Position numbers and translations under genes: made by a program
The notes under the pieces: generated by a model
The model's database searches: none
Told to the model about the DNA's origin: nothing
The model's input: the letters and a program-made list of their open reading frames with translations, nothing else
Part shown: positions 15,632-43,640 of the stretch, in pieces
Numbering within the stretch: the first letter of the stretch is position 1
How the letters are laid out: each line of letters opens with the position of its first letter
Source: Chloroflexota bacterium
GTDB taxonomy: Bacteria; Chloroflexota; Anaerolineae; 4572-78
DNA: 43,640 nucleotides
Direction of reading: 5' to 3'
NCBI GenBank assembly: GCA_024278725.1
Contig: JAJRSQ010000237.1
Coordinates: 1-43,640 of the forward strand

Positions 15632-18337
<2,706 letters not shown>

Positions 18338-18386
18338 ACCTGTCTCCTTAAAATTGTATCGAATTTGGTGTTTCAAATTTCGGGGT

Positions 18387-26626: not shown

Positions 26627-26785
26627 ACCACACCTCCCGATGTTTTGTCTGCGAAAATCGCCCTTAAAGCACGAATGATTATTCGATTGTACAATGTGTT
26701 GGAATGAAGGGCAAAATTTTGTTGGCATTTCCGATTTTTTTTAAATTATGCTACACTACCCTGCGGTGTTTGTGAAGGAAATGTT

Positions 26786-30607: not shown

Positions 30608-31728
30608 GCATTTCCTCCTGCCGGCAATGTGCCCTCAACGGGTTTTCCCAATGCCGATGCCACAATCCGGCTCACCAATTTCCCCTGATACAGCACCGTT
30701 CCCGCCGCCAACGCGGGATGGGTTTTCAGCGCCGTGCCCACCCCTTCACTGCCGATGCTCAACAGATAGGGGAGTGAAGCGTTGGTGAGGGCATAGCTGG
30801 TGGTACGGGCGGCAATCGCGGTGAGGTTCGGCACGCAAAAATGGATGACGCCCTCTTCCACGAAAGTCTGGTCGCGGATGGTGGTGGGGCGGCTGGTTTC
30901 CACGCATCCGCCGCTGTCGATGGAAAAATCAATGATGACCGAGCGTTTCCGCATCGAGCGCACCATGTCGCGGGTCACCAAAATGGGGGCGCGTTTGCCA
31001 GGTGTTTGCACCGCGCCGACGAAAACGTCGGCGTATGATACGGCGCGTTTCAAATTGTATTCATTGTAAAGGACGGTGTTCACCTTGCCGTTGAAAAATT
31101 CTTCGATGCGGCGAAGCTGGTTCATATCTTTGTCCAGCACGGTCACTTGCGCCCCAATGCCCCAAAATGCCCGCGCGGCGCTGAAGCCGAGTTCGCCCCC
31201 GCCCAAAATGACGACGGCGGCGGCGGGCACGCCGGGCAGCCCGCTGAGGAGCGTCCCGCGCCCGCCACGGTGGGTGGTGAGCAGTTGCCCGGCAATAATC
31301 GGCGCGAGGCGTCCGGCGGTCTGGCTCATCGGGACTAAAACGGGCAGGCATCCGTCTTCTTTTTGCACCAGTTCGTAGGCAATGGCGGTGATGCGACGCG
31401 CGGTGAGCGCGTCCAGCAGGTCGGGGGATGATACCGCCAGATGCAGGAATGAAAAGATGGTCTGTCCGGTGCGGAAGAGCGCGTGTTCATCGCGCGTGGG
31501 GCGAGTCACTTTCACCACCACATCCGCGCGGCGATATGCCTCCTCTGCGGAATAAACAATTTGCGCCCCGGCAGCGCGATAATCCTCATCGCTGAAACCG
31601 GCGGTCGCGCCGGCATTCCGTTCCACATATACTTGATGCCCGGCTTTGGTGAGGGCTAAAACGCCGGGGGGCGTCAATCCGACACGGTTTTCAAGGTCAC
31701 GCACTTCGGCGGGAACACCAAATTCCAT
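30604..31728 (-). CDS. ald: Alanine dehydrogenase
   Basis: 374 aa. MEFGVPAEVRDLENRVGLTPPGVLALTKAGHQVYVERNAGATAGFSDEDYRAAGAQIV, with a Rossmann motif VVILGGGELGFSAA. There is a 4-nt overlap with the CoA-transferase gene. Confidence 0.88.
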   Translation of the reverse strand: MEFGVPAEVRDLENRVGLTPPGVLALTKAGHQVYVERNAGATAGFSDEDYRAAGAQIVYSAEEAYRRADVVVKVTRPTRDEHALFRTGQTIFSFLHLAVSSPDLLDALTARRITAIAYELVQKEDGCLPVLVPMSQTAGRLAPIIAGQLLTTHRGGRGTLLSGLPGVPAAAVVILGGGELGFSAARAFWGIGAQVTVLDKDMNQLRRIEEFFNGKVNTVLYNEYNLKRAVSYADVFVGAVQTPGKRAPILVTRDMVRSMRKRSVIIDFSIDSGGCVETSRPTTIRDQTFVEEGVIHFCVPNLTAIAARTTSYALTNASLPYLLSIGSEGVGTALKTHPALAAGTVLYQGKLVSRIVASALGKPVEGTLPAGGNA

Positions 31729-31772
31729 ATGATTACCTCCTGTATTGTTTTACTTCGTTTCAAAATTCAGCA

Positions 31773-31810
31773 AAAAGCCACGAATCCGACGTTGGTTCGC
31801 GGCTTTTTTG
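31773..31810. terminator. Hairpin terminator between the DHOD-like gene and ald
   Basis: AAAAGCCACGAA (31773-31784) pairs with TTCGCGGCTTTT (31797-31808), with one G-U-type mismatch. It is flanked by A-runs and T-runs. It lies downstream of the minus-strand gene ending at 31878. Confidence 0.7.
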
Positions 31811-31877
31811 CGTCTATTTTTTTGCACGCCCGAAAAAGATTCGCGCGCGTAACGGGAGTGTACCGTCATCCATACAT

Positions 31878-32867
31878 TTAGCGATAGCTTTGCAACACTT
31901 TCATATAGTTTGCGCGCTCAAAAGCGGCGGGTTCCGCCACATTGCGCTGATTCATACTGCCCTGCATCTGGACAATCGATTCGTATTCATACAGTTCCAT
32001 CCAATCTACCAGCGATTGCAGAATTTGGCTGATGCGTCCCACGCCATTGGCGAGCAATTCCGATGCCATCATCGTCACTTTTGCACCCGCCATCACGCCT
32101 TTCAGCACGTCATAATGGGTGTGAACGCCGGTGGTGATGGCGAAATCCACATCAATTTGGGGGGACAGAATTGCCACCCAGCGCAACGGCAACAGCATCT
32201 CGTGGGAATGGCTGAGTTCGACTCTCGGCGCAACCTCCAGCGCTTCCAGGTCGAAATCGGGCTGGTAAAAACGATTGAACAACACCAGCGCATCGGCGCC
32301 GGCGGCGGCGAGTTGCGCACTCATATGGGCGGTGCTGCTGAAATACGGGTTGAGTTTCACGGCAACCGGAATGCTCACGCTGGCGGTCACATCGCGCACC
32401 ACATCCAGATACATCTTTTCCACATCCGTGCCGGCGAGCGAAGTGCTGGTGGGAATGTAGTAGATGTTCAGCTCCAACCCATCCGCACCGGCATCCGCGA
32501 TATTTTTGGCGTATTCAATCCATCCGCCGGTGGAAACACCGTTCAAACTGCCGATGACGGGGATGTCAACCGATTCTTTGATGCGTCGGATGTGATTCAA
32601 ATATTCATCAGGACCCATATTGTAATCGGTCATATCCGGGAAATAGCTTGAAGCCTCTGAAAATGTATCCGCGCCGAAGCTCAAAAAATGGTCGAGTTCG
32701 TGGCTTTCACCGGAAATTTGTTCCTCAAACAACGAGTACAAAACAATAGCCGCCGCGCCCGCGTCTTCCATCTGTTTGACGGTCGCAATATCTTTTGACA
32801 GTGGGGATGCTGATGGTACGATGGGGTTCTTCAATGTCATGCCCATATATGTTGTGGTTAAATCCAT
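31878..32867 (-). CDS. Dihydroorotate-dehydrogenase-like TIM-barrel flavoprotein (non-canonical active site)
   Basis: 329 aa. The class-1 DHOD/DPD-like fold is seen in [43 protein letters not shown] and [19 protein letters not shown]. The canonical ELN(L/I)SCPN catalytic segment reads ELNIYYIP here. The gene is immediately downstream of PFOR. Confidence 0.75.
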
Positions 32868-32972
32868 AAATCACATCCTCATTTTTTTTTGAAGTTTTTA
32901 TCGGGGATGGTGTGCGCCATATTTCAGACGCACACCACTTTCATCACCTACTTATCTGCCGGGAGCAGGAAC

Positions 32973-35900
32973 TCAGTCGATGGCAGCCATCTGTTCATAT
33001 TTGTGCCAATGCGCGTTGACGGCATCCTGCGCCGCTGCCAGCAATTCATCCGCTTTCGCCGGGTTCGTTTTCACCAGGATTTTATACCGCGCTTCGTTGT
33101 AGATGTAATCTTTCAACGGACGTTTCGGCTTTTTGGAGTCGAGTTTCAATGGCGGCTTGCCTTCCTGATGACGGCGCGGGTCGTAGCGGTAGAGGGGCCA
33201 GTAGCCCGTTTCCACCGCCAGTTTTGTTTGGATGTGCCCCTGACCGCTGGCAAGGTCGATGCCGTGGGCGATACAGGGTGAATAGGCGATAATCAGCGAG
33301 GGACCGTCGTAGGCTTCGGCTTCCATGATGGCTTTCACGGTCTGCGCATCGTTGGCGCCCATCGCAATTTGCGCCACGTACACATACCCGTAGCTCATCG
33401 CCATCATCCCCAGGTCTTTTTTGATGGTCGGTTTCCCACCGGCGGCGAATTTCGCCACCGCGGCGAGCGGGGTCGCTTTGGATGCCTGCCCGCCGGTATT
33501 GGAATAAACTTCGGTGTCCAGCACCAGCACGTTCACATTGCGTCCGCTGGCGAGCACATGGTCTACCCCGCCGTAACCGATGTCGTATGCCCAGCCGTCG
33601 CCGCCCATAATCCAGACGCTCTTCTTCACCAGCATATCGGCTAAACTGAGCAGGTCGCGGGCTTTCACGCCGTTGTTTCCGGCGAGAATATCTTTCAGTT
33701 GCGCCACCCGCTCGCGTTGCGCGCTGATGCCCGCTTCGTCCGACTGGTCGGCGCTGAGCAGCGCATCCGCCAAATCCGCGCCGATGTCGTCGCGCAGCAG
33801 AGTCACCAATTCGCGGGCGTATTCGGTTTGTTTGTCAATGGTCAGCCGCATGCCCAGCCCGAATTCGGCATTGTCTTCAAAGAGCGAGTTGCTCCACGCG
33901 GGACCGCGTCCCTCTTTGTTGAATGTCCACGGGGTGGTGGGCAGATTGCCGCCGTAAATGCTGGAACAGCCGGTCGCATTGGCAACCACAGCGCGGTCGC
34001 CGAAGAGTTGCGTGACCAGTTTGACGTAGGGGGTTTCCCCGCAACCCGCGCACGCGCCGGAAAATTCAAAGAGGGGTTCGAGGAGTTGGATATTCTTCAC
34101 GTTGGCGAAATTCACCGAATCGGTGCGGGAGATTTCCGGCAAATCGAGGAAGAAGCTCCAGTTTGCGCGTTCGGTTTCCCGCAACGGCAATTGCGGCTCC
34201 ATATTGATGGCTTTGCGCCCCACCTGCGTTTTATCCTTCACGGGACATGCTTCCACACAGAGGGTACAGCCGGTGCAGTCTTCCACCGCCACTTGCAGGG
34301 TGTATTTCATCCCTTTAAATTCTTTCCAACGGGCGTCAACCGCTTTGAAGGTTTCGGGTGCGCCTTCGAGCGCGGTTTCATCATACACTTTCGAGCGGAT
34401 GACCGCGTGCGGACACACCAGCACACACTTTCCACACTGAATACAGAGGTCTTCATCCCACACCGGGGCTTCCAGCGCAATGTTTCGTTTTTCCCATTGG
34501 GTGGTTCCCGAAGGATATGTGCCGTCAATGGGCAACATGCTGACCGGAATTTCATCCCCTCTGCCCTGCATCATTTTTGCGGTGACGGTTTTGACAAATT
34601 CCGGCGCGGCGTCCGGCACGGTTGCCGGTTTTTCGATGGTGCTGGTTGCCTGCGCGGGCACGTCAATTTTGTGCAGATGCGAAAGGGCGGCATCAACGGC
34701 GGCGAAGTTTTTCTGTACCACTGCCTCGCCCCGTTTGCCGTAAGTTTTCTTGATGGCGGTTTTGATGCGGTCAATCGCTTCATCTTCCGGCAACACCCCG
34801 CTGATGGCGAAGAAGCAGGTTTGCATGATGGTGTTGATGCGCACGCCCATACCCGTTTCTTTCGCCACTTCATAGGCGTCAATCGCGTAGAATTTCAGAT
34901 TTTTGCTGATGATGGCTTCCTGAATTGTGCGCGGCAGATGTCCCCAAACCTCATCGGCGTGATAAGGGCTGTTCAGGAGGAAGGTTGCCCCCTCTTCCGC
35001 GTAATCGAGCAGGTCGTACCGTTCCAGGAAAACGAATTGATGCACGGCGATGAAGTTCGCCTTTTTGATGAGATATGTGCTGTGGATGGGGCGCGACCCG
35101 AATCGAAGGTGCGAAATGGTCTGCGCACCGGCTTTTCGGGAGTCGTAAACAAAATAGCCCTGAGCGTAATTGTCCGTACCTTCCCCGATGATTTTGATGG
35201 AGTTTTTGTTCGCGCCAACCGTGCCGTCGGAACCGAGTCCCCAGAACATCGCCCGCACAATATCATCCGGCTCAATGTTGAAGTCGCGGTCAAATTCGAT
35301 GCTGGTGTTCGTCACATCGTCAATAATGCCGACGGTGAAATGGTTTTTCGGTTTGGCTTTGGTCATTTCATCGAATACCCCTTTGACCATCGCGGGGGTG
35401 AATTCTTTGGATGACAGTCCGTATCGCCCACCGATGATGCGCGGCATCCGGGTGAAGGGGGTTGTGCCATCGGCAAAACCTTCGCTGATGGTGGTGATGA
35501 CATCCTGATAGAGGGGTTCGCCGGCGGCGCCCGGTTCTTTGGTGCGGTCTAACACGGCGATGGTTTTGGTGGTGGCGGGCAGTGCGCCCAGGAAATGTTC
35601 GGCGGAGAAGGGACGGTAGAGCCGAACTTTCAGCATCCCGATTTTTTCGCCCCGCGCCGTGAGGTAATTCACCGTTTCCTCGGCGGTTTCCGCGCCGGAG
35701 CCCATCAGAATGATCACCCGCTCGGCGTCGGGCGCACCAATGTAGTCGAACAGGTGGTATTGGCGTCCCACAATTTTGGCGAATTTGTCCATCGCTTTTT
35801 GGACAATGCCGGGGGTTTTGATGTAAAACGGATTGACCGTTTCGCGCGCTTGGAAGAAAACGTCGGGGTTCTGCGCCGTACCGCGAATGGCGGGATGGTC

Positions 35901-36542
35901 GGGCGATAATCCGCGGGCGCGGTGGGCGCGGACGAGGTCATCGTCAATCATCGCCCGCATATCGTCGTGTGTCAGTTCCTCCACTTTCATAATTTCGTGC
36001 GACGTGCGGAAACCGTCGAACACGTGCAAAAACGGCACGCGCGATTCCAGCGTGGCAGCCTGAGAAATCAGCGCGAAGTCCATCACTTCCTGCACCGATG
36101 AGGCGAACAGCATGGCAAAGCCGGTGCTGCGGGCAGCCATCACATCGCTGTGGTCGCCAAAGATGGACAAAGCCTGCGCCGCCACCGACCGCGCCGCAAT
36201 GTGGAAAACAGTGCTGGTCAGTTCACCGGCAATCTTGTACATATTGGGTATCATCAACAGCAACCCTTGCGATGCGGTGAAGGTAGTGGTGAGCGAGCCG
36301 GTGGTCAATGCGCCGTGGACTGCCCCGGCGGCGCCGCCTTCCGCTTGCATTTCCACAACAGTGGGGACAGTTCCCCAGATATTTGTTGCATGCTTGGCAG
36401 ATTTTTCGTCCGCCATTTCTCCCATCGGAGACGAGGGCGTAATCGGGTAGATGGCAATCACTTCATTTGTGGCGTGCGCCACGTGTGCCACCGCAGTGTT
36501 ACCGTCAATGGTAACCATTCTTCGTTGTGTTCCGTTAGCCAT
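32973..36542 (-). CDS. nifJ: Pyruvate:ferredoxin (flavodoxin) oxidoreductase
   Basis: 1189 aa of single-chain PFOR. It starts MVTIDGNTAVAHVAHATNEVIAIYPITPSSPMGE. The ferredoxin domain carries CIQCGKCVLVCPH and CTGCTLCVEACP. The TPP domain includes GCGETPY and GGDGWAYDIGYGG. Confidence 0.97.
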   Translation of the reverse strand: MANGTQRRMVTIDGNTAVAHVAHATNEVIAIYPITPSSPMGEMADEKSAKHATNIWGTVPTVVEMQAEGGAAGAVHGALTTGSLTTTFTASQGLLLMIPNMYKIAGELTSTVFHIAARSVAAQALSIFGDHSDVMAARSTGFAMLFASSVQEVMDFALISQAATLESRVPFLHVFDGFRTSHEIMKVEELTHDDMRAMIDDDLVRAHRARGLSPDHPAIRGTAQNPDVFFQARETVNPFYIKTPGIVQKAMDKFAKIVGRQYHLFDYIGAPDAERVIILMGSGAETAEETVNYLTARGEKIGMLKVRLYRPFSAEHFLGALPATTKTIAVLDRTKEPGAAGEPLYQDVITTISEGFADGTTPFTRMPRIIGGRYGLSSKEFTPAMVKGVFDEMTKAKPKNHFTVGIIDDVTNTSIEFDRDFNIEPDDIVRAMFWGLGSDGTVGANKNSIKIIGEGTDNYAQGYFVYDSRKAGAQTISHLRFGSRPIHSTYLIKKANFIAVHQFVFLERYDLLDYAEEGATFLLNSPYHADEVWGHLPRTIQEAIISKNLKFYAIDAYEVAKETGMGVRINTIMQTCFFAISGVLPEDEAIDRIKTAIKKTYGKRGEAVVQKNFAAVDAALSHLHKIDVPAQATSTIEKPATVPDAAPEFVKTVTAKMMQGRGDEIPVSMLPIDGTYPSGTTQWEKRNIALEAPVWDEDLCIQCGKCVLVCPHAVIRSKVYDETALEGAPETFKAVDARWKEFKGMKYTLQVAVEDCTGCTLCVEACPVKDKTQVGRKAINMEPQLPLRETERANWSFFLDLPEISRTDSVNFANVKNIQLLEPLFEFSGACAGCGETPYVKLVTQLFGDRAVVANATGCSSIYGGNLPTTPWTFNKEGRGPAWSNSLFEDNAEFGLGMRLTIDKQTEYARELVTLLRDDIGADLADALLSADQSDEAGISAQRERVAQLKDILAGNNGVKARDLLSLADMLVKKSVWIMGGDGWAYDIGYGGVDHVLASGRNVNVLVLDTEVYSNTGGQASKATPLAAVAKFAAGGKPTIKKDLGMMAMSYGYVYVAQIAMGANDAQTVKAIMEAEAYDGPSLIIAYSPCIAHGIDLASGQGHIQTKLAVETGYWPLYRYDPRRHQEGKPPLKLDSKKPKRPLKDYIYNEARYKILVKTNPAKADELLAAAQDAVNAHWHKYEQMAAID

Positions 36543-36602
36543 AGATTTTCTCCTTTAAAAATTCACTCCCTCCAGTATACTCCTTGCGCAAGTGCATGTC
36601 TA

Positions 36603-36637
36603 GTGAAATTTATCGTTATTTTGATGATAAATGTCAC
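36603..36637. promoter_or_regulatory. 12-11-12 inverted repeat in the PFOR upstream region (candidate operator or 5'-UTR hairpin)
   Basis: GTGAAATTTATC (36603-36614), an 11-nt AT-rich spacer, GATAAATGTCAC (36626-36637). The arms match at 11/12 positions. It lies 61-95 nt upstream of the nifJ ATG (36542). Confidence 0.4.
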
Positions 36638-36670
36638 ATCACGGCTGAAGGATTCCCCCCGGATGGACGA

Positions 36671-36976
36671 TTATTCCAGCGATGCCACCACCACGGAGTC
36701 GAATCCGCCGTGCGGATTGGGGAGATAGGCGTCCGCCTGCCATTCATCGCGCCAGTGCATACCGTCAAACAAATAGCGGAAACGATAGGACTGCCCGGCA
36801 TCCAAATCGAGCGCAATCACCCAATCATCATTTTCATCATGCTCAAACGGAAGGGATGCAACATCCCATGCATTGAAATCGCCCACCAAATTGATGCTTT
36901 CCACCCACAATGAACCGGGGATTTTAAAGATGACCCGCACTTTTCCGGGCGCGTAGGATGGTTCTTTCTGTATCAT
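36671..36976 (-). CDS. Stand-alone CBM48 / isoamylase early-set (AMPK-beta glycogen-binding-like) domain protein
   Basis: About 101 aa starting at MIQKEP (36976). VRVIFKIPGSLWVESINLVGDFNAWDVASLPFEHDENDDWVIALDLDAGQSYRFRYLFDGMHWRDEWQADAYLPNPHGGFDSVV is the classic CBM48 pattern (LVGDFNxW...YxFkYlvDG.W..D). Confidence 0.75.
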   Translation of the reverse strand: MIQKEPSYAPGKVRVIFKIPGSLWVESINLVGDFNAWDVASLPFEHDENDDWVIALDLDAGQSYRFRYLFDGMHWRDEWQADAYLPNPHGGFDSVVVASLE

Positions 36977-37061
36977 TAATCGCTCCCTGTATGCAAAAAG
37001 ACAAGCGTCCTTTGGCAAGAACGCTCATCTTGTTTAATGATGGTTTTCAATAATGTTGGAT

Positions 37062-37976
37062 TTAATTCTCCGAATGTGTTGAGGGTTCCCCCGCCCCCGG
37101 TGTGAACGGGTGCATATCTTTTCGGACGTAGATGAACCAGTAAACCAGCCCAACCATCAACGCCCCACCGATGATGTTGCCGATAGTGACCGGCAATAGG
37201 TTGCCAATTACGATGTTTTTCCATGTTATATCACCATAATCATCGGCGGTTTTGCCGATGGCGTTCCAGAAGGAACCGGGGGCGCTCACTTTCACCAGCC
37301 ATCCGATTGACAGGAAATACATATTGGCAACACTGTGTTCAAATCCGGCGGCAACAAAGGCGGTAATCGGGAAGATGATTGCCAATATTTTATCGGTGAC
37401 GGTGCGCGCGCTGAAGCACAACCACACTGCCAAACATACTAACGCATTACACAGTATACCCAACGCTATCGCCTGTACAAAACCGAGATGTACTTTCCCG
37501 TTGGCAATGTTCAAAATATTTAACCCGATGACCCCACCACCAAAGGTGAACTGCTTGGTGTACAGCATCAGCACTGCCGTACCAATGGAACCGATGAAAT
37601 TCCCCAGATAAACAATGCCCCAATTGCGTAACAGTTGCTTGGTGGACACTTTTTTGTCCGCCCACGCCATCACAATCAGGTTGTTTCCGGTGAATAGTTC
37701 CGCGCCGGCGACAATGACCAAAATCAGCCCTAGGCTGAACACCAACCCGCCTAGCAACTTCGTCACTCCGAAGGTTAGATTGCCGCTGGCACCGGCGGTG
37801 ACGGTTGTGGCAAAAACCGCCCCCATACCGATGAATGCGCCTGCCAAAACCGCCAGCGCGAACGTATTCCAAAATCCCATCCCTGCTTTTTTCTGACCCA
37901 CAACTTCGGCTTTGAGCGCCATATCAGGTGGTAAAAACGAATCAAGTGTATTATTTGTTGGAATTGAAACTGCCAT
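37062..37976 (-). CDS. Formate/nitrite transporter (FNT) family channel
   Basis: About 304 aa from the ATG at 37976, with GGAGGG 7 nt upstream. The FNT N-terminus is LPPDMALKAEVVGQKKAGMGFWNTFALAVLAGAFIGMGAVF. Also present are LVIVAGAELFTGN and FEHSVANMY (the conserved His region). Confidence 0.88.
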   Translation of the reverse strand: MAVSIPTNNTLDSFLPPDMALKAEVVGQKKAGMGFWNTFALAVLAGAFIGMGAVFATTVTAGASGNLTFGVTKLLGGLVFSLGLILVIVAGAELFTGNNLIVMAWADKKVSTKQLLRNWGIVYLGNFIGSIGTAVLMLYTKQFTFGGGVIGLNILNIANGKVHLGFVQAIALGILCNALVCLAVWLCFSARTVTDKILAIIFPITAFVAAGFEHSVANMYFLSIGWLVKVSAPGSFWNAIGKTADDYGDITWKNIVIGNLLPVTIGNIIGGALMVGLVYWFIYVRKDMHPFTPGAGEPSTHSEN

Positions 37977-38153
37977 TAAAACACCCTCCAATGTAAAAAT
38001 ATGGTTTATAGTGCGTATATCGTTATATTGTGAAGTATATCACGCCTTACTGCAAAAAAACAATGACAAACATCCTGATTTCTCAAGACATTTGTCACAT
38101 TCTTTCCACGGGGAATATTTACTATAAATTCACGAATCTTTACGCAAACTTTA

Positions 38154-38182
38154 TTCAAATTTTCTTACTTTTCTGCTATACT
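38154..38182 (+). promoter_or_regulatory. Candidate sigma-70 promoter for the 46-codon ORF
   Basis: TTCAAA (38154-38159), a 17-nt spacer, TATACT (38177-38182). It lies in an AT-rich intergenic region, 31 nt upstream of the ATG at 38213. Confidence 0.4.
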
Positions 38183-38212
38183 CCTCATATAAAGACGAGC
38201 GCGAGGGCGAAA

Positions 38213-38353
38213 ATGGAATTCATCACAAAATTTGGCACACTGTGGATAGCTTTAGACGTGGCAATCTTGGCGACCTTCTGGTATGTGAAAAATACGTTCC
38301 CCAGTTGGTGGGACACAGTGGTTTGTGATGCAGCGCCTGAGAATCTCGATTAA
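38213..38353 (+). CDS. Small membrane protein (46 aa, hypothetical)
   Basis: MEFITKFGTLWIALDVAILATFWYVKNTFPSWWDTVVCDAAPENLD has one TM segment. GAGGG lies 6 nt upstream of the ATG. A candidate promoter sits upstream and a strong terminator downstream. The upstream 61 codons of the track ORF are AT-rich and unlikely to be coding. Confidence 0.4.
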   Translation: MEFITKFGTLWIALDVAILATFWYVKNTFPSWWDTVVCDAAPENLD

Positions 38354-38397
38354 CTGATTTCCTCCTTAAGATATTTAGAATTCCTCCTATCCTTGTT

Positions 38398-38435
38398 AAG
38401 ACCGACCCCTGACCCAGGTCGGTCTTATACTTTTT
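38398..38435 (+). terminator. Rho-independent terminator
   Basis: AAGACCGACC (38398-38407), a 9-nt loop, GGTCGGTCTT (38417-38426), then ATACTTTTT. It lies between the small plus-strand ORF and the convergent YcxB-like gene. Confidence 0.75.
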
Positions 38436-38439
38436 AAAC

Positions 38440-38898
38440 TCATCGTTGAATATATTCATCCAGATACCGCTGAAACTTCGCCAGCTTCTCCGTCGGAACA
38501 TCATTTTTCGGAATGGCGAAAATGAACCCTTCCGAATGAAACAACACAAAATTCCCCGCAACAACCTGCCACCCTTTAAATTCATCCCAACCGAATTTAT
38601 TTTCGCCCAATTTGGTTTTCACGGTGATGCCATTGCCGGAAAGTGTGTACCGCGTCGGCAATAATTGTGGGTTGCCGTCGCTGCGCGTTTGGCGGAGAAT
38701 GTTGAAAATTCCCAAAAACACATAAAACAGATACGGCAACCATGCCACAATCAACAGCCCGTAATTCCCGGTGCTGAGGGTGTATGCCGTGACCACCCCG
38801 CTCGCAATCAAATAAATATACAGCCCCTTATTTTGAAAAAACAGCAAGAGTCCCAAACGGGTTACGGTGCTTTTGGGAAGGGTAACATTAATGTTCAT
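38440..38898 (-). CDS. YcxB-like membrane protein
   Basis: 152 aa with two N-terminal TM helices (LGLLLFFQN...IYLIASGVVTAY / LLIVAWLPYLFYVFLGIF). The YcxB-type C-terminal domain reads YTLSGNGITVKT...FGWDEFKGWQVVAGNFVLFHSEGFIFAIPKNDVP. GC content looks lower than in the neighbouring genes. It is the last gene of the sensor-exonuclease operon. Confidence 0.65.
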   Translation of the reverse strand: MNINVTLPKSTVTRLGLLLFFQNKGLYIYLIASGVVTAYTLSTGNYGLLIVAWLPYLFYVFLGIFNILRQTRSDGNPQLLPTRYTLSGNGITVKTKLGENKFGWDEFKGWQVVAGNFVLFHSEGFIFAIPKNDVPTEKLAKFQRYLDEYIQR

Positions 38899-38919
38899 AG
38901 ATGGATTTCCTTTGCCAAT

Positions 38920-41031
38920 TTAATATTTTAAGCGGGCGTAAAATGTTTCTTTGGAGGCTTGCAGGGCATCCGCCAAAGTGATGATGCCCCGCTCTGCCAG
39001 TAGCGGCAGCATCTTCAAAAAAATATCGCCCGTCAATAACGCATCGCCCAGAGCGGTGTGCCTGCCGACAATATCAATCCCCAGCCGTTCCGCAATGGCT
39101 TCCAGACTGTGGTCTGATTGACTGGGGTGTACCACCGCCGACAACAGCAGCGTGTCCAGCACCGGATTGGTGAATCGAATATCGGTGCGGCTCTCTTTTT
39201 GCTGGAAAAGCCGCATATCGAATGCCGCATTGTGCCCCACCAGCACCGTATCCTCCACGAAATGATGGAAGGCGGGCAAAACCTGTTCAATGGTGGGATG
39301 CCCTGCCAGCATATCGGTGGAAATACCGTGAATATTGGTTGCCATCGGCGAAACTGCCCGCCGGGGGTCTACCAGTTGGTCGAAAATTTCCTGCCGCAGA
39401 AGTCGCCCATTCACGATGCGCGCCGCTCCAATCGAGATAATCTCATCGGCGACGGGGTCAAGTCCGGTGGTCTCCGTGTCGAACACGGTGTACGTCAGTT
39501 CCGAAAGTTTCTGCGATTGCAGACTCCCGATTTTCCCGGCGCGCCGGAATAAATCGAAATCATAATATTCGGGACGACTGCTCTGCACCACAGGCATCCG
39601 GCGGGCGGGCGGCGGGTCTGTGGTGGGTAGCAACATGCGAAAATACGCCACGCCGGTATCCACATCCCGCTGATACCATACTTCGCCGCCGTGGTATTCC
39701 GCAATTTCACGAATGGTGAGCGACACGCCGTCACTGTTGCTGTCCAGAATCTGGTTCTGCCACGACCACATCGTGTCGGCATCAACACGGCTGCTTTCCC
39801 AAATAATATCAAATGCCGCCAGCCGCCCGGCTTGTTTCAAATTTATCTGCACGGCATCAACATCGAAACTCTTTTTGAGCCGTCGCACCAAAAAAGTTGC
39901 CGCCTGCACCACCAAATACCCGTCCACCTGCAACCACAGCGACGGTTCCGGCGCGGCGATAGACCGGGTGGACACCTTCAGTTTGTCTTCAAACCGACGT
40001 TGAATCGCCCACAGCAAATCGCTGCCGGGGATTTTTTCCAATTGCCATTTGGCGCGAATGTCGGAGGCGTATTCAGTGGTCAATTCATCCAGCCGCGCGC
40101 TGAGCGCCAGCGATTCTTCCGAAATGACGTGGTACAGTTGGTTCAATTTTTCCTGCCGGATATTGGGGTACGCCTCAATGGTTTCAATGGCGGCGCGGAT
40201 GTTGGCAATCGGCGAGCGCACCCCTTCCGTCAAAGCGCGGAGCAGAATATCGCGCCGGCTGCTGCTTTTGCTGTGCTGGGTGGTATCTTCCAGTGTCAGC
40301 ACAAAGCCATTAATTGCCTGCGAATTTTGCAAAATCGGGGCGATAGCCACCCGCAATAACTGCCCGTTGGTCGCCGAAGTCACAAAACGGGAGATGACAT
40401 ATGCGCTGTGTTTCTCGGTGCGGTAGGTGAGTTCCTCCAGCGCATGGGTGATGACGCTCCGGTCGAGCACGCCAAAAATCGAGCGTCCCAGCCCCACCAG
40501 CCCCGCGGCGGATGAAGACGTCCAGCTTTCCGGCGTGTGGCTCAACAATTCCTTCGCCAGATTATTGTACAGCAGAATTTGCCCCTCCACATTGCAGACC
40601 AGCACGCCTTCCGTCAATTCCGACATCAGCGCCACGAGCCGTTTTTTCTCCGCTTCCAGCTCATCGTGCGCGCGCTCAATTTCGGCTGCCTGATTTTCCA
40701 GCACGGTCTGATACCGTTCGGCAAACGCATTGATTGCTCCCGCCAGCTTGCGCATCTCCACCGGTCCGTCAACATCGGTGCGCCAGGCGGGATTCACGGT
40801 GGTAATCACCCTCATATCCTCCGCCAGCCGCTTCGCGCTCACAATGTACGATTGGAAAAACAGGCTGATGAAAAGGCTGAGCACCATCAATATTAAAATT
40901 GCCCCGGCAATAACCAGGATTAATTGTTCTTTCCCCAACATGGGAATTGCGATGAAGGCGACCAGCATCCCCAACAGAAACAGAAAGATGCTGCCCAGCG
41001 AAAAGAACATCTCAAACTTTTGTCGTTCCAT
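38920..41031 (-). CDS. Membrane HAMP-PAS protein with a degenerate histidine-kinase core fused to a DEDDh (DnaQ/RNase T-like) 3'-5' exonuclease
   Basis: 703 aa. It has two TM helices with almost no external loop, a HAMP domain and a coiled coil, then PAS (LMSELTEGVLVCNVEGQILLYNNLAKELL...INGFVLTLEDTT). The DHp-like helix LLRALTEGVRSPIANIRAAIETI has Glu where the phospho-His sits (compare SHELRTPLTSI). The CA-like fold lacks the N and G boxes but keeps IREIAEYHGGEVWYQRDVDTGVAYFRMLLP. The exonuclease motifs are ExoI VFDTETTGLDP, ExoII LVGHNAAFDMRL and ExoIII GRHTALGDALLTG. Confidence 0.8.
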   Translation of the reverse strand: MERQKFEMFFSLGSIFLFLLGMLVAFIAIPMLGKEQLILVIAGAILILMVLSLFISLFFQSYIVSAKRLAEDMRVITTVNPAWRTDVDGPVEMRKLAGAINAFAERYQTVLENQAAEIERAHDELEAEKKRLVALMSELTEGVLVCNVEGQILLYNNLAKELLSHTPESWTSSSAAGLVGLGRSIFGVLDRSVITHALEELTYRTEKHSAYVISRFVTSATNGQLLRVAIAPILQNSQAINGFVLTLEDTTQHSKSSSRRDILLRALTEGVRSPIANIRAAIETIEAYPNIRQEKLNQLYHVISEESLALSARLDELTTEYASDIRAKWQLEKIPGSDLLWAIQRRFEDKLKVSTRSIAAPEPSLWLQVDGYLVVQAATFLVRRLKKSFDVDAVQINLKQAGRLAAFDIIWESSRVDADTMWSWQNQILDSNSDGVSLTIREIAEYHGGEVWYQRDVDTGVAYFRMLLPTTDPPPARRMPVVQSSRPEYYDFDLFRRAGKIGSLQSQKLSELTYTVFDTETTGLDPVADEIISIGAARIVNGRLLRQEIFDQLVDPRRAVSPMATNIHGISTDMLAGHPTIEQVLPAFHHFVEDTVLVGHNAAFDMRLFQQKESRTDIRFTNPVLDTLLLSAVVHPSQSDHSLEAIAERLGIDIVGRHTALGDALLTGDIFLKMLPLLAERGIITLADALQASKETFYARLKY

Positions 41032-41398
41032 CGTCTTCCAAAATTTCGTTAATTTTTTGGATCAGCATTTTGGTTGAAAACGGCTTGCTGATATATGCGT
41101 TTGCGCCGAGCGCCAACCCTTTCGCCATTTCCACTTCCTGCCCTTTCGCCGTCAACATGACGATTTTCGTCTCCGCCCATTGTGCATTTTCGCGGATGCG
41201 GCGACACACTTCAAACCCGTTGATGTGCGGGAGCATCACATCCAGCAGCACCAAATCGGGCGAAAATTCCTCCAGCAGTGCCATCGCCTCCCGCCCGTCA
41301 CGGGCAATTTCATACTGATAGCCCGCCTGCTCCAGCAAAAACTCCAGCGACACCACGATATTTTTTTCATCATCCACAATCAGAACACGTTTTGCCAT
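41012..41398 (-). CDS. Single-domain (CheY-like, receiver-only) response regulator
   Basis: 128 aa. KRVLIVDDEKN...DLVLLDVMLPHINGFEV...KIVMLTAKG...AYISKPF. There is no output domain. The stop lies 20 nt inside the start of the downstream fusion gene. Confidence 0.92.
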   Translation of the reverse strand: MAKRVLIVDDEKNIVVSLEFLLEQAGYQYEIARDGREAMALLEEFSPDLVLLDVMLPHINGFEVCRRIRENAQWAETKIVMLTAKGQEVEMAKGLALGANAYISKPFSTKMLIQKINEILEDDGTTKV

Positions 41399-41435
41399 AA
41401 CTTTTATCCCACATTGCGCCGATGTTTCACGGCTA

Positions 41436-41816
41436 TTATCTGAAAACTGAACCCAAAATCAACCCGCCGATAGCGCCATAAACCGCCCCCACCAGCGCGC
41501 CCATCAGCCATTGACCGACATCCCCCGTGGACATTCCCAGCGCCAACCCGGCAAGCGCGCCGACGACGCCCAACACCGCGACGCCGGTGGAAATTCCGCC
41601 ACGCCAGCCGATGAAGCCCCCCGCCGCCGCCCACAGCGCGGCAATCGGCAGGGTGAGCCGCAACGGTCCAAGCATATCAAACGATTCGGTTTTGAAGAGG
41701 AGTGCAGTGGCAAATGGGAAAACTGCCGTTGACAAACTATTTCCCCCGGCAAAGCCGAGCACGGCACTCAGGAAAATTCGCAATTTCGGGTTGTTGTTGA
41801 GCATATGTGTCTCCAT
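41436..41816 (-). CDS. Glycine-zipper-rich small membrane protein (hypothetical)
   Basis: 126 aa (or from MLNNNPK) with about 4 TM segments rich in GxxxG/A: LWAAAGGFIGWRGGISTGVAVLGVVGALAGLALGMSTG...GALVGAVYGAIGGLILGSVF. It lies between the kinase and the response regulator, with gaps of 15 and 37 nt. Confidence 0.55.
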   Translation of the reverse strand: METHMLNNNPKLRIFLSAVLGFAGGNSLSTAVFPFATALLFKTESFDMLGPLRLTLPIAALWAAAGGFIGWRGGISTGVAVLGVVGALAGLALGMSTGDVGQWLMGALVGAVYGAIGGLILGSVFR

Positions 41817-41831
41817 TGGGTTAAATTGATG

Positions 41832-43640
41832 TTATAACTGCATAGGTTCGCTGTTTTCGTTATTGGTCACCGGCTGATAATTGAACGGCAGGGTGAATGA
41901 AAAAGTTGCGCCTGAACCGCCGCGCCGGTCACTGACCCAAATTTCGCCGCCAAAATACGACACGATGCGGCGGCAGATGGGCAATCCCAGCCCGGTTCCC
42001 TGCGGTTTGTCGGTGAGCGTATCGCCCGCCTGCCGAAATTTTTCAAAAATGATGTCCCTGTTTTCCGGGGCAACCCCCGCACCATTATCACTCACATTCA
42101 CTTGGATGACGGCGGGCGAAACCTGCACCTGAATTTGAATCCAACCGCCCTCCGTGGCGCAAAATTTGATGGCGTTGGAAACGAGATTCAGCAACACCTG
42201 CATGATACGGTCGTGGTCAACCCGCACCGAAGGCACGTGGTCGGGGAAATCCAGTTCCAGCCGGGCGTTCTTTTCGTGCAACAATTGCGCCACCGCCGTG
42301 ACGGTTTCCTTTATCAAATCGCGGATGTCCACCGCAGAGAGCGACCATTCCATATTCCCCGATTCGATTTTCGCCAAATCCAGCACATTGTTGATGAGCC
42401 GGGTCAGACGTTCACTCTCTTTCAAAATAATGCCGGAAAATTCGAGCCGTTTGGCGGCGTTCAAGTCCGGATTGTCGGATAAAATCTCCGAAAATGCGCG
42501 GATGGACGTGAGCGGGGTGCGGAGTTCATGCGTCACAGTGGAGATGAATTCATCCTTCAGCCGGTCGAGTTTTTTCAATTCCTCATTTGCCGCGCGCAAC
42601 TCGGCGGTTGCTTTTTCCAACGCCTGCGATTTCTCTTCCAATTGATGGCTGTACGCAATCACCTGCGAGGTTTCATCCAGAATGTCCATCACCTCCTTCA
42701 GGCTCAACATCTCTTCCTTCACCACCGATGCCACCGTTACCCGCGCCGATGCCGCGCCGATGACCCCCGCGAGTTGTTTCTCGGCGAAGCCCACCAATTC
42801 CGGGTCGGCATCGGAGGCGGGTGTCCAGATAAGCCCGCGCGCTTGAGCATACTGCGCGAACAGCCTGTCCGCTCGTCCGGGTCCCAAAAATCGCCCCAGC
42901 AGCGAGCGCAAACTTTCCACCGAAGTGCTGCCGCGCCAGATTGAAGCGGGGTTGCGCGATTGTTTGCCATCGTATTTGAACACATCCACAAATAATGATG
43001 CCTGACTGTGTTCCAAAACTGTCGGCTGATTCAAAAGCGAGAGAATCAGGTATCCGCCTACATTGAATAACATGCTCCACACCAATGCGTGGGTGATGGG
43101 CGTGAGGTTGTCAACCCCAAACAGCGCATACGGTTTGAGCCACCAAATGCCGAAGGGACCATGCTCGATAAATTGCGCGGTGAACCAGCCCGATTCCGCC
43201 ATGGAGGGCAGAAAAAGGGTGTACGCCCACACCAGAAATCCGCCGGTGATGCCTGCCAGCGCGCCCGCGCGCGTCCCCCCTTTCCAATACATGCCGCCCA
43301 GCAGGGCGGGCGCAAATTGTGCCACCGCCGTGAATGAAATCAGCCCGATGGACACCAGCGGACTGGATTGTCCCGTTTGGCGAAAATAGCCGTAACTCAG
43401 CAGTAAAATCAGGATGATGGCGGCGCGGCGGATGAACAGGAGCAAGCCGCTCATGTTCACCTGCGATTCCAGTTTCAGCACCCGGATGCGGAGCAGAAAA
43501 GGCATGATGAGGGTATTGGAGACCATCGTGGTGAGGGCAACCGTCGCCACAATCACCATGCCCGTCGCGGCGGAAAGCCCGCCGATGAACACAAACAACG
43601 CCAGCCATTCCCTGCGTTCCGCCATCGGCAGGGTGAGGAC
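41832..43640 (-). CDS. Sodium:solute symporter (SSS/SLC5)-domain sensor histidine kinase (N-terminus beyond the window)
   Basis: The frame remains open to 43640 (upstream of the track Met at 43625 it reads VLTLP). The N-terminal ~190 aa in the window are SSS-type TM helices (FAPALLGGMYWKGGTRAGALAGITGGFLVWAYTLFLP). A cytoplasmic linker and coiled coil follow. The kinase core is canonical: H-box FISTVTHELRTPLTSI, N-box LLNLVSNAIKF, G1 SDNGAGV, G2 GTGLGLPI. Confidence 0.88.
   Translation of the reverse strand, partial: VLTLPMAERREWLALFVFIGGLSAATGMVIVATVALTTMVSNTLIMPFLLRIRVLKLESQVNMSGLLLFIRRAAIILILLLSYGYFRQTGQSSPLVSIGLISFTAVAQFAPALLGGMYWKGGTRAGALAGITGGFLVWAYTLFLPSMAESGWFTAQFIEHGPFGIWWLKPYALFGVDNLTPITHALVWSMLFNVGGYLILSLLNQPTVLEHSQASLFVDVFKYDGKQSRNPASIWRGSTSVESLRSLLGRFLGPGRADRLFAQYAQARGLIWTPASDADPELVGFAEKQLAGVIGAASARVTVASVVKEEMLSLKEVMDILDETSQVIAYSHQLEEKSQALEKATAELRAANEELKKLDRLKDEFISTVTHELRTPLTSIRAFSEILSDNPDLNAAKRLEFSGIILKESERLTRLINNVLDLAKIESGNMEWSLSAVDIRDLIKETVTAVAQLLHEKNARLELDFPDHVPSVRVDHDRIMQVLLNLVSNAIKFCATEGGWIQIQVQVSPAVIQVNVSDNGAGVAPENRDIIFEKFRQAGDTLTDKPQGTGLGLPICRRIVSYFGGEIWVSDRRGGSGATFSFTLPFNYQPVTNNENSEPMQL

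Follow-up and report, generated by a model that had tools for sequence, protein, structure and literature searches.

An SLC5 transporter-kinase, receiver and exonuclease-pseudokinase cassette linked to acetate genes: a candidate two-component pathway with an enzymatic output

Histidine kinases that carry an SLC5 transporter domain, as in the CbrA/CbrB, CrbS/CrbR (MxtR/ErdR) and RpuS/RpuR systems, are partnered by a sigma-54 activator or a LuxR-type regulator, and their output is transcription. In Pseudomonas putida, PP_0354 (a cNMP-CBS-DUF294 nucleotidyltransferase) and PP_0353 (an RNase_T exonuclease) form a CrbS/R-dependent operon whose PAO1 homologues adjoin actP/yjcH (PMC9927547); the two genes are among the most strongly MxtR/ErdR-dependent, and growth with pyruvate or propionate is poor when they are mutated (PMC9927547; 2026 preprint). 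In DivL, by comparison, a histidine kinase has been repurposed to sense whether a single-domain regulator is phosphorylated (PMC4211667). The locus described here, on a 43,640-nt stretch of DNA from a Chloroflexota bacterium (hereafter the window), has features of each. On balance, we favour the view that what its SLC5 kinase and stand-alone receiver control is not a gene regulator but a membrane-anchored exonuclease built on a dead kinase. The cassette is widespread but unstudied and is tied to genes for acetate and pyruvate metabolism, the use of which, if this view is correct, would be tuned without a transcription factor.

Five tightly packed open reading frames occupy the minus strand between positions 38440 and 43640, with the shared direction and close spacing that had been described from the sequence alone. 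The transporter-kinase gene (41832..>43640), whose frame is open at the window edge, is separated by 15 nt from a gene for a 126-aa membrane protein (41436..41816), which is followed after 37 nt by the gene for a 128-aa receiver (41012..41398). The receiver gene overlaps by 20 nt (41012..41031) the gene for a 703-aa fusion protein (38920..41031), and a further 21-nt gap leads to the last of the five, encoding a 152-aa YcxB protein (38440..38898). The coordinates thus confirm that the receiver stop lies inside the first codons of the fusion gene, the start of which is backed by the N-termini of homologues, and this overlap suggests that the two are translationally coupled. Receiver and fusion genes overlap in 7/8 annotated examples, the window included: by 20 nt in the related loci L003, L005 and L006, by 7 nt in P. 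yeei, by 4 nt in P. denitrificans and by 1 nt in Marivivens. Such overlaps link all five genes (DUF294, peptide, kinase, receiver and fusion) in P. denitrificans PD1222. What the window contains is the distal part of an operon from an Anaerolineae-type bacterium; elsewhere in the window, 12 kb away, a LuxR-type regulator lies beside its own HisKA_3 kinase.

A 92%-identical contig, L005, continues past the window edge into the rest of the kinase gene, a gene for a 65-aa CbrX-like peptide, a cNMP/CBS/DUF294 nucleotidyltransferase gene and acs. Judged from this relative, the whole operon would read acs, DUF294, CbrX-like peptide, kinase, (126-aa protein), receiver, fusion, (YcxB). The sequence-only reading had proposed an operon with no DNA-binding output domain, and so it appears: the adjacent regulator is receiver-only, L005 shows no DNA-binding regulator upstream of the kinase or anywhere else in its operon, and none recurs across 80 loci, although the kinase may have a distal DNA-binding partner. 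The DUF294 partner, which lies outside the window, had been missed.

The order kinase, receiver, fusion is found again in some 70 genomes (counted at species level) that belong to several phyla, which argues that the arrangement is not a product of chance. Hosts include Chloroflexota, Thermoleophilia, Beta- and Gammaproteobacteria and Desulfobacterales, and among the cultured ones are Paracoccus denitrificans PD1222 and Thauera. The linkage of the fusion to receiver-only and SLC5-kinase genes is strongly conserved, with a receiver directly upstream in 74 of 82 cases and an SLC5 kinase in the flank in 63 of 70; the 65-aa peptide gene precedes the kinase in 57/69, DUF294 is present in 32 of 41 loci, and 36 of the 41 have at least one of DUF294, acs or a symporter. 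Two observations count against our preferred reading: in 8/82 cases, for example in Accumulibacter and Competibacter, the fusion has no adjacent receiver or kinase, and L001 has the kinase-receiver-fusion core with no DUF294 nearby. A DEDDh exonuclease gene is found with a DUF294 gene near acs, actP or ackA in L005, L006 and L003, and the DUF294-exonuclease pairing occurs also in Paracoccus, Ruegeria, Marivivens, Rhizobium, Shinella and Vibrio. The earlier statement that stand-alone exonuclease genes lie near acs or actP in proteobacteria is borne out by PP_0354/PP_0353, by their PAO1 homologues and by the Vibrio locus, which carries the same pair with an exonuclease of 241 aa.

The part of the CbrA-like SLC5 transporter-histidine kinase that lies in the window (41832..43640) encodes its C-terminal 602 aa, comprising the last SLC5 helices, a linker in the position of STAC, a coiled coil, HisKA (Pfam, 4e-19) and HATPase_c (1e-27). 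With the CbrXA SLC5-STAC structure (PDB 10ED) as the reference, residues 3-150 align to residues 312-453 of the CbrA SLC5 domain (E 2e-19), and residues 7-472 of a full-length, 97%-identical relative of 924 aa align to residues 10-453 (E 1.4e-67). Pfam SSF gives no match in the window kinase and a weak one in PD1222, and STAC is not matched by the single kinase sequence; a profile of 25 orthologues matches residues 475-589 of 10ED only weakly (E 0.034), colinear with the STAC position. The H, N, G1 and G2 boxes (HELRTPL, NxxxNAxKF, DNGxG, GTGLGL) are conserved across 73 kinase orthologues and, together with the CbrA alignment, uphold the assignment of an SSS-domain kinase with a canonical core. 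A C-terminal receiver was sought with Response_reg and gave no match, and the protein ends about 16 residues past HATPase_c. The separate receiver matches Response_reg at 1e-30 and has no output domain or other Pfam match, as expected of a receiver-only regulator. Its orthologues directly upstream of fusion genes are 46-77% identical, with D9, D10, D53, T83 and K105 conserved among the linked ones; in orthologue alignments, kinase and receiver retain all of their catalytic or phospho-acceptor residues.

The fusion protein had been read as a TM-HAMP-PAS protein with a degenerate kinase, and this description stands for most of its parts. AF2 models residues 3-60 (40852..41025) as a membrane hairpin of two helices (3-28 and 34-60 onward) joined by roughly five residues, and there is no periplasmic sensor domain. 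Residues 61-137 (40621..40851) form HAMP-like helices and a signalling coiled coil (helices 61-78 and 91-137); Pfam gives no HAMP match here, and the assignment draws on the two helices that follow TM2 in the model and on an alignment to VicK/WalK, in sequence and in fold, that begins at about residue 39 and spans their HAMP region. The PAS domain, residues 138-250 (40282..40620), has PAS topology in the model, with a five-stranded sheet at residues 142-249; its Pfam score in the window is below threshold (17.8 vs 22.6) and those of homologues are above it. A DHp-like helical hairpin at residues 251-328 (40048..40281) and a CA-like alpha/beta domain at residues 329-472 (39616..40047) make up the degenerate core. 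That this central region is kinase-like is agreed by sequence (VicK 4i5s, E 2e-8), by hhalign of the DHp/CA profile to the core of the neighbouring kinase (probability 95%, 25% identity) and by fold, Foldseek matching it to WalK, VicK, ThkA, HK853 and DivL (4q20).

This core retains the fold but has lost the phospho-accepting histidine and the ATP-binding boxes throughout the family. The CA-like domain lacks the N, G1 and G2 boxes and has no Pfam HATPase_c match, and Glu269 takes the place of the acceptor His. The glutamate is invariant among the homologues of alignment A1, with His in 0/32; in the 73 linked loci the five commonest residues at this position account for 70, His not being one of them, and in the wider family E (63%) is followed by Q, T, A, K, R and D, with His in 3 of 150 representatives. 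As the residue is not fixed across the family, no phosphomimic role can be argued for it. Other positions of the hairpin are highly conserved in the 73 linked loci (R272, R279, A280/281 and E283), and the strong conservation of the dead core as a whole, at R272, R279, E283, H447 and W452, calls for a non-catalytic role. We propose that the hairpin is a putative docking site for the receiver.

The core is joined to the exonuclease by a linker, residues 473-510 (39502..39615), with a near-invariant R-P-E-Y-Y-D-F-D-L-F at 486-495, in which R486, D491, F492, L494 and F495 are shared by all 73 loci; its pLDDT is low in the AF2 model, and F/YDFxL is retained in short alphaproteobacterial relatives. 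Residues 511-703 and the stop codon (38920..39501) encode a DEDDh (DnaQ-like) 3'-5' exonuclease domain, of which residues 516-671 match Pfam RNase_T at 4e-35 and for which pLDDT is about 80-90. The ExoI DxE, ExoII NxxxFD and ExoIII HxxxxD motifs are all there (D518, E520, H600-N-A-A-F-D605, H658, D663), and with D518, E520, N601-D605, H658 and D663 invariant in 73/73 linked loci, the active site is, as far as sequence can tell, intact. The fold matches the PolC exonuclease, epsilon, the DinG exonuclease and Cas2-DEDDh with rmsd of 1.7-2.5 Å and 26-38% identity.

The two remaining membrane proteins, in contrast to this conserved core, are lineage-specific accessories. The 126-aa glycine-rich protein is encoded where it had been placed, and no Pfam family reaches threshold in it; the glycine zipper once assigned to it reduces to a weak Gly-zipper_OmpA match (E 0.013). 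The 152-aa protein has two N-terminal membrane helices and is YcxB-like by Pfam (PF14317, 5.5e-9; 36.1 bits vs a gathering cutoff of 23.3), in keeping with its first description. Homologues of the former occur only in the Chloroflexota loci L001, L005, L006 and L008, and among related loci the YcxB gene is found only in L005, L006 and L008; neither was seen in any of 41 loci outside Anaerolineae.

It is tempting to assemble these parts into a pathway, and the chain that we infer, from ligand through phosphotransfer, docking and gating to substrate, would run as follows. The transporter-kinase would respond to the supply or the flux of a small solute, with a monocarboxylate (acetate or pyruvate, for instance) as the probable ligand; it would autophosphorylate and then pass the phosphate to the stand-alone receiver, which, as the genes overlap, might be made in step with the fusion protein. 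By analogy with DivK~P, which binds the pseudokinase DivL, the phosphorylated receiver would bind the DHp-like helices of the dead kinase module and so switch the C-terminal exonuclease on or off, and the membrane, HAMP and PAS part of the fusion could add a second input. Genomic context suggests that the exonuclease might take the role of the stand-alone exonucleases found in proteobacteria beside DUF294 near acs, actP or ackA, in which case it would most likely strip a 3'-nucleotidyl group or tail, added by DUF294, from a putative RNA, oligonucleotide or protein target.

A rather unlikely alternative, and the one that fares best, is that the genes lie together simply to be co-expressed in a monocarboxylate regulon, the receiver being a phosphate sink or acting on an unlinked target, for instance a distal DNA-binding regulator, and the fusion being an independent sensor-enzyme that answers to its own membrane, HAMP and PAS input alone. 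The orphan fusions fit such a scheme, as do the fusion's own input-type domains and the LuxR-type regulator in the window, although the latter adjoins a kinase of its own. A mutual-information comparison of receiver columns with fusion columns yielded no signal that could be interpreted and hence no support for direct contact, and the kinase-receiver positive control failed too. Against co-expression alone stand the placement of the receiver gene, across phyla, directly before the fusion gene and often with an overlap, and the conserved dead core with its need for a non-catalytic role. Moreover, the receiver is missing exactly where the DHp/CA-like module is missing: the long forms of the fusion (646-706 aa) have a receiver gene upstream, whereas five short alphaproteobacterial forms (464-562 aa) have neither the module nor the receiver gene, a pattern that fits docking of the receiver on the dead kinase.

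It is also conceivable, but distinctly improbable, that the target of the pseudokinase module is the SLC5 kinase itself, by heterodimer formation or modulation as in RocA and DivL, and that the exonuclease is an unrelated addition. Kinase-modulating pseudokinases are known, the two are both membrane proteins encoded side by side in 63/70 loci, and the fusion's DHp/CA region aligns with the core of its neighbour. However, in P. yeei and Marivivens receiver and fusion are still paired with no adjacent SLC5 kinase, the tightest junction is that between receiver and fusion rather than kinase and fusion, and conservation within the fusion is highest in its exonuclease domain and linker, which are therefore not incidental.

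Databases name homologues of the fusion 'DNA polymerase III subunit epsilon', and its best fold matches are indeed the PolC exonuclease (9qrn, 1.7 Å) and epsilon (2ido/1j53, 1.7-1.9 Å), but a proofreading or repair role is very improbable: the protein falls below the cutoff of every epsilon or PolC model (TIGR01406, dnaQ_proteo, 100.6 bits vs 222.7; PRK05711, 106.5 vs 196), only the generic domain model TIGR00573 being passed, it is membrane-anchored with sensor domains, and the genes conserved around it are those of signalling and acetate use and not of replication. We give scarcely any credence to an anti-phage or nucleotide-signalling defence module, which is brought to mind by a Pol-beta-type nucleotidyltransferase paired with a nuclease effector and by a PADLOC match of the exonuclease domain to CRISPR-associated DEDDh, because that match is of the generic DEDDh domain alone, DUF294, YcxB and the 126-aa protein have no defence matches, the receiver has only weak, generic REC-domain ones (SduA 3.8e-9, PDC-M60B, PD-T4-6), the neighbourhood is stably metabolic across phyla (acs, symporters, ackA, PFOR), and the Pseudomonas pair, which the acetate regulator controls, has an effect on growth with pyruvate and with propionate.

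Returning to control of the exonuclease by kinase and receiver, the known systems each supply part of the comparison. Like DivL, the fusion keeps the DHp-CA fold with the acceptor His replaced, has PAS in the same polypeptide and is accompanied by a stand-alone receiver, the binding of which is here a prediction by analogy. DivL carries Tyr in place of the His and sends its signal backwards via PAS to the kinase CckA, whereas in the fusion this position is mostly Glu, the ATP boxes are lost and the signal is likely to be received by the C-terminal exonuclease. With CbrA/CbrB, CrbS/CrbR and RpuS/RpuR the window kinase shares an SLC5 N-terminus homologous to that of CbrA and a canonical kinase core, a small two-helix peptide gene lies upstream of kinases of this type as does cbrX, and, as in the CrbS/R regulon, there is a genomic tie to acs, to acetate and pyruvate symporters and to a DUF294 gene. 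It differs in being non-hybrid (unlike CrbS), in lacking PAS (unlike CbrA), in a STAC that is weakly detectable and, above all, in a partner that is receiver-only, with a presumed output that is an enzyme and not transcription. PP_0354/PP_0353 are the same two enzyme types, also adjoining acetate and pyruvate genes and dependent on an SLC5/STAC kinase, but the Pseudomonas exonuclease stands alone under transcriptional control by ErdR, whereas that of the window forms one polypeptide with sensor and pseudokinase modules and is coupled to a receiver. The Vibrio exonuclease belongs to NCBIfam PRK09146 (361.8 bits), on which the fusion domain scores only 54.1 (NF006602 cutoff 266), being closest instead to PolC, PRK07883 and PRK07740; the two are therefore of different DEDDh lineages, and the case for their functional equivalence is one of context alone. 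Since its closest structural relatives are DNA proofreading exonucleases, no particular signalling substrate is indicated. Finally, the fusion has the exonuclease fold and all five catalytic residues of DnaQ/epsilon, PolC, DinG and Cas2-DEDDh but none of their polymerase-, helicase- or Cas-binding parts, and, unlike any of these, it is anchored in the membrane and fused to two-component modules.

The five genes at 38440-43640 all lie on the minus strand and are packed as tightly as the sequence-only reading had described, with gaps of 15, 37 and 21 nt and one overlap of 20 nt. The first encodes a CbrA-like SLC5 transporter-histidine kinase (41832..>43640), whose frame is open at the window edge with 602 codons visible; it is followed after 15 nt by the gene for a 126-aa protein with no Pfam family and a weak glycine-zipper match (41436..41816) and, after a further 37 nt, by that for a 128-aa receiver (41012..41398). 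Response_reg is the sole Pfam domain of the latter, in keeping with its initial description as a receiver-only regulator. Its gene overlaps by 20 nt that of a 703-aa protein, the fusion (38920..41031), in which Pfam detects RNase_T at residues 516-671 and a sub-threshold PAS domain, and 21 nt beyond this is the gene for a 152-aa protein assigned to Pfam YcxB (38440..38898). A scan for promoters and terminators returned site counts no higher than those in shuffled sequence. A hairpin with a 16-bp stem and a T-run at 38063-38098 (minus strand), in the low-GC spacer (43%) ~340 nt beyond the YcxB stop, may be the operon terminator.

An exact-sequence look-up of the window's fusion protein found no record, and the part of the operon beyond the window edge was read from a proxy, L005, a contig that is colinear with 37091-43640 at 91.9% DNA identity and reaches 4.5 kb further. 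Its gene order is acs (partial), a cNMP-binding/CBS/DUF294/DUF294_C protein of 598 aa (DUF294 from here on), a 65-aa peptide, the kinase, a 123-aa protein, the receiver, the fusion, YcxB and FocA, and the order is the same in L006, an 81%-identical relative. No DNA-binding regulator is present in the operon, including the upstream part seen in these two relatives, so the claim that it lacks a DNA-binding output survives a search of the very place, upstream of the kinase, where such a regulator might have been. The nearest one to the cassette is a LuxR-type response regulator (receiver + GerE) ~12 kb off, encoded divergently to a PAS-GAF-HisKA_3 kinase (25979-28411), and these two probably form a separate system of their own.

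Pfam assigns HisKA and HATPase_c to the SLC5 kinase and finds no SSF or HAMP match among the cassette proteins in the window; these gaps were filled by PDB sequence and fold comparison. The visible N-terminus of the kinase aligns with residues 312-453 of PDB 10ED (E 2e-19), a cryo-EM structure that covers the SLC5-STAC domains of P. putida CbrX-CbrA (PMC13022988), and residues 7-472 of the full 924-aa protein, as seen in L005, match CbrA with E 1.4e-67. A single-sequence search with the kinase gave no match to a STAC domain, and a profile of 25 orthologues matches CbrA 475-589 at the STAC position weakly (E 0.034). The canonical H, N, G1 and G2 boxes that had been read from the sequence alone are kept across 73 orthologues, and the kinase is non-hybrid and has no PAS domain. 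Directly upstream of its gene, often overlapping it, 57 of 69 loci have a gene for a two-helix hydrophobic peptide of 63-81 aa (65 aa at L005 3306-3503; a further example at L092 5471-5716). This is the position of cbrX relative to its kinase gene, and CbrX itself, ~58 aa long, forms a membrane hairpin bound to the transporter domain of CbrA (PMC13022988), so partners of the CbrX type may be a general feature of these kinases.

An AlphaFold model of the fusion, built on 32 homologues and with a mean pLDDT of 77, consists of a membrane hairpin with a tiny external loop (residues 3-60), HAMP-like helices and a coiled coil (61-137), a PAS domain (142-249), two long DHp-like helices (251-328), a CA-like alpha/beta domain (332-471), a linker of low model confidence (472-510) and the exonuclease (511-703). 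In Foldseek searches the N-terminal 470 residues match whole histidine kinases (WalK, VicK, LOV kinases, ThkA, HK853, DivL), and the C-terminus matches the PolC exonuclease, epsilon, the DinG exonuclease and DnaQ-Cas at rmsd 1.7-2.5 Å. The kinase core is degenerate, as had been supposed: in a profile alignment with the neighbouring kinase (probability 95%) Glu269 falls on the phospho-histidine, and the fusion lacks the N-box Asn and both glycine motifs (G1 and G2). At the phospho-acceptor position, 70 of the 73 linked loci have one of the five commonest residues (E, Q, D, T and A), none of them His; His occurs there in 3 of 150 cluster representatives. Nor is the Thr or Asn at H+4 that is required for phosphatase activity conserved (S/A). 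The predicted DEDDh exonuclease has its catalytic residues intact, with D518, E520, H600-N-A-A-F-D605, H658 and D663 invariant in 73/73 loci. With the acceptor His and ATP boxes lost and the exonuclease residues invariant, the fusion is, judged from its sequence, a dead kinase scaffold carrying a live-looking, predicted-active DEDDh exonuclease. Between the two lies a near-invariant motif, R-P-E-Y-Y-D-F-D-L-F (residues 486-495; window 39544-39573), modelled with low confidence yet conserved like the active site across the 73 loci, which may be a docking or autoinhibitory peptide. The F/YDFxL part of this motif is retained in short alphaproteobacterial relatives.

The family is common. More than 120 full-length homologues (47-98% identity) were found, most of them in Anaerolineae genomes and annotated as 'DNA polymerase III subunit epsilon' or as 'exonuclease/PAS domain-containing protein', and the N-terminal 500 residues alone match 388 clusters (50% identity) at E<=1e-30, with members nearly all ~700-730 aa when complete. 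Among the ten longest of 150 listed representatives, a Rosetta-stone scan found no fusion to a receiver or to DUF294, the architecture being the same in all. A scan of one genome per species gave 580 relatives, of which the best 80, all near full length (hence at least 80 species-level genomes with this form), come from Chloroflexota, Thermoleophilia, Desulfobacterales, Gammaproteobacteria (including a Pseudomonas, Thiothrix and Competibacter) and many Betaproteobacteria (Thauera, Azoarcus, Zoogloea, Dechloromonas, Azonexus, Accumulibacter, Noviherbaspirillum and Denitromonas, among others). The linkage that had been predicted holds across phyla, with an orthologous receiver (46-77% identical) directly upstream of the fusion in 74 of 82 cases and an SLC5 kinase present at 63 of 70 loci. 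DUF294 is found at 32/41 loci, a DUF4212-associated symporter at 29/41 and acs at 19/41, with at least one of the three at 36/41. The 126-aa and YcxB genes are confined to a few Chloroflexota loci (0/41 elsewhere) and are therefore accessories. On plasmid 1 of Paracoccus denitrificans PD1222, each gene overlaps the next, from DUF294 through those for a peptide (81 aa), a kinase (901 aa) and a receiver (121 aa) to that for the exonuclease protein (706 aa), and Cupriavidus necator N-1 has a full-length copy of the fusion. Two loci, L020 and L083, have the module (fusion, DUF294, DUF4212, symporter) in two tandem copies; at L020 the first fusion directly follows the kinase with no receiver between, and at L083 both copies have a receiver. 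Full-length orphan fusions with no adjacent receiver, SLC5 kinase or DUF294 occur in Accumulibacter (L049, L050, L064, L066), in Competibacter (L045) and at L025. The polyphosphate- and glycogen-accumulating bacteria that host such orphans live on acetate pulses.

Alphaproteobacterial relatives come in two lengths. Those that contain the pseudokinase module are long (P. yeei 646 aa, Marivivens 694 aa, PD1222 706 aa) and have a receiver gene upstream, often overlapping, whereas short forms (Ruegeria 479 aa, Limimaricola 464 aa, Tateyamaria 469 aa, Rhizobium 562 aa, Shinella 561 aa) have none. The Rhizobium protein, the sole short form that was profile-aligned, retains the membrane-HAMP-PAS part, the F/YDFxL linker and the exonuclease, and has essentially no match to the DHp/CA-like columns. 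The receiver's place in loci with short forms is taken by a conserved ~175-aa membrane protein (~162-193 aa), encoded between the DUF294 and exonuclease genes (L087-L088 and L093-L097; for example L094 2015-2539), which has two N-terminal membrane helices and a ~110-aa domain, no Pfam family, and no detectable similarity to YcxB or the 126-aa protein. This distribution would be expected of a receiver whose target is the dead kinase module of the fusion; with about two lineages represented among the short forms, the pattern is suggestive rather than statistical. There is an established precedent for a dead kinase reading a phosphorylated single-domain receiver in DivL, whose kinase domain has been repurposed to sense the phosphorylation state of DivK (PMC4211667).

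The notion that stand-alone exonuclease genes recur near acs/actP in proteobacteria was borne out by the literature: ErdR controls a P. putida operon made up of pp_0354 (cNMP/CBS/DUF294) and pp_0353 (an exonuclease of the RNase_T family), and the PAO1 homologues of these genes adjoin actP and yjcH (PMC9927547). Deletion of pp_0353 slows growth on pyruvate, and its authors speculate on mRNA decay (PMC9927547); P. fluorescens Pflu5625, another cNMP/CBS/DUF294 protein, belongs to the CrbS/R regulon (PMC5715377). A September 2026 preprint places PP_0354/PP_0353 among the most strongly MxtR/ErdR-dependent genes, with moderate propionate and pyruvate defects, and suggests that PP_0354 carries out protein nucleotidylation. 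In Vibrio aquimaris, ackA, a MerR gene and DUF294 are followed by the gene for a 241-aa exonuclease (L090 8864-9589) that scores 362 bits against NCBIfam PRK09146, where the fusion's exonuclease domain scores 54 bits. The latter is nearer the PolC, PRK07883 and PRK07740 types. A PolC-like domain is found both in the fusion and in its alphaproteobacterial relatives, and the Vibrio enzyme is of the stand-alone PRK09146 type. That DUF294 is paired with two DEDDh lineages points to a functional need for such an enzyme rather than shared descent, and suggests that the exonuclease was recruited to its DUF294 partner independently. For DUF294 itself we found no curated model in NCBIfam, and its transferase part has no solved structure.

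Downstream of the operon, the genes at 29312-37991 all belong to the pyruvate/acetyl-CoA node. They encode the formate channel FocA (37062-37991), pyruvate:ferredoxin oxidoreductase (32973-36542), alanine dehydrogenase (30604-31728) and a ScpC-family acetyl-CoA hydrolase/transferase (29312-30607). ScpC is another ErdR target. Further along is aconitase (15632-18376), and a 115-aa ORF with no Pfam match at E<=1e-5 lies between the FocA and oxidoreductase genes (36671-37018).

The reading that we find best supported, and hold to be somewhat more likely than not, is that the transporter-kinase would phosphorylate the stand-alone receiver, which would dock on the kinase-derived scaffold of the fusion and gate a membrane-tethered 3'-5' exonuclease, and that this enzyme and the DUF294 nucleotidyltransferase would act on a common substrate tied to monocarboxylate use. 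The sequences establish the domain identities, the dead and live catalytic sites, the overlap of the genes and their conserved linkage; phosphotransfer, docking and gating, like the ligand and the substrate, are what we infer. Mutual information with APC between receiver columns and those of the fusion or kinase, over 69 non-redundant triplets, gave scattered top pairs, and the kinase-receiver positive control did no better. Mere co-location of the proteins with no contact between them is a weaker alternative. Also weaker is the idea that the pseudokinase acts on the real kinase; in P. yeei and Marivivens the receiver and fusion genes stay paired with no adjacent SLC5 kinase. A replisome subunit, as the database name of many homologues would have it, was rejected as the fusion scores below every curated epsilon and PolC cutoff. 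A defence system was likewise rejected, PADLOC matching only a generic DEDDh domain and giving weak generic REC hits for the receiver.

If the receiver-gated exonuclease does work with DUF294, it is tempting to speculate, though we consider it rather unlikely in this specific form, that the output is a nucleotide writer/eraser switch instead of transcription. DUF294, regulated by its cNMP/CBS domains, would attach a nucleotide, or a short tail, to its target, be it the 3' end of an RNA, a signalling oligonucleotide or a protein (Acs or the symporter, for instance), and the membrane-tethered exonuclease would take the addition off again. Such a switch would let monocarboxylate uptake and activation follow solute flux and energy charge on a time scale of seconds, and would also account for the PP_0353/PP_0354-type genes of the CrbS/R regulon, which have long lacked an explanation. 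The natural fusion bears on the DUF294/exonuclease pair of the Pseudomonas and Vibrio acetate regulon, which is strongly regulated and has mild pyruvate and propionate phenotypes. Hosts of the fusion include wastewater and denitrifying bacteria, and testability is high in cultured ones such as P. denitrificans PD1222, Thauera, Azoarcus, C. necator N-1 and a Pseudomonas.

Our literature searches found no paper on the cassette, on a pseudokinase-exonuclease fusion or on an exonuclease as a two-component output, and those on DUF294 with an exonuclease, and on SLC5 with an exonuclease and a response regulator, gave nothing on the cassette. Taken singly, each part is of a known kind (an SLC5/STAC kinase, a receiver-only regulator, a DivL-like pseudokinase and a DEDDh exonuclease); their combination, and the logic it implies, is new. 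To our knowledge, the three SLC5/STAC transporter-kinases that have been studied all signal to DNA-binding regulators. The cassette would add a fourth class in which the signal goes to an enzyme, with an exonuclease as a new type of output for two-component systems, and would be, after DivL, the second and by far the more widespread case of a dead histidine kinase serving as the receptor for a phosphorylated receiver.
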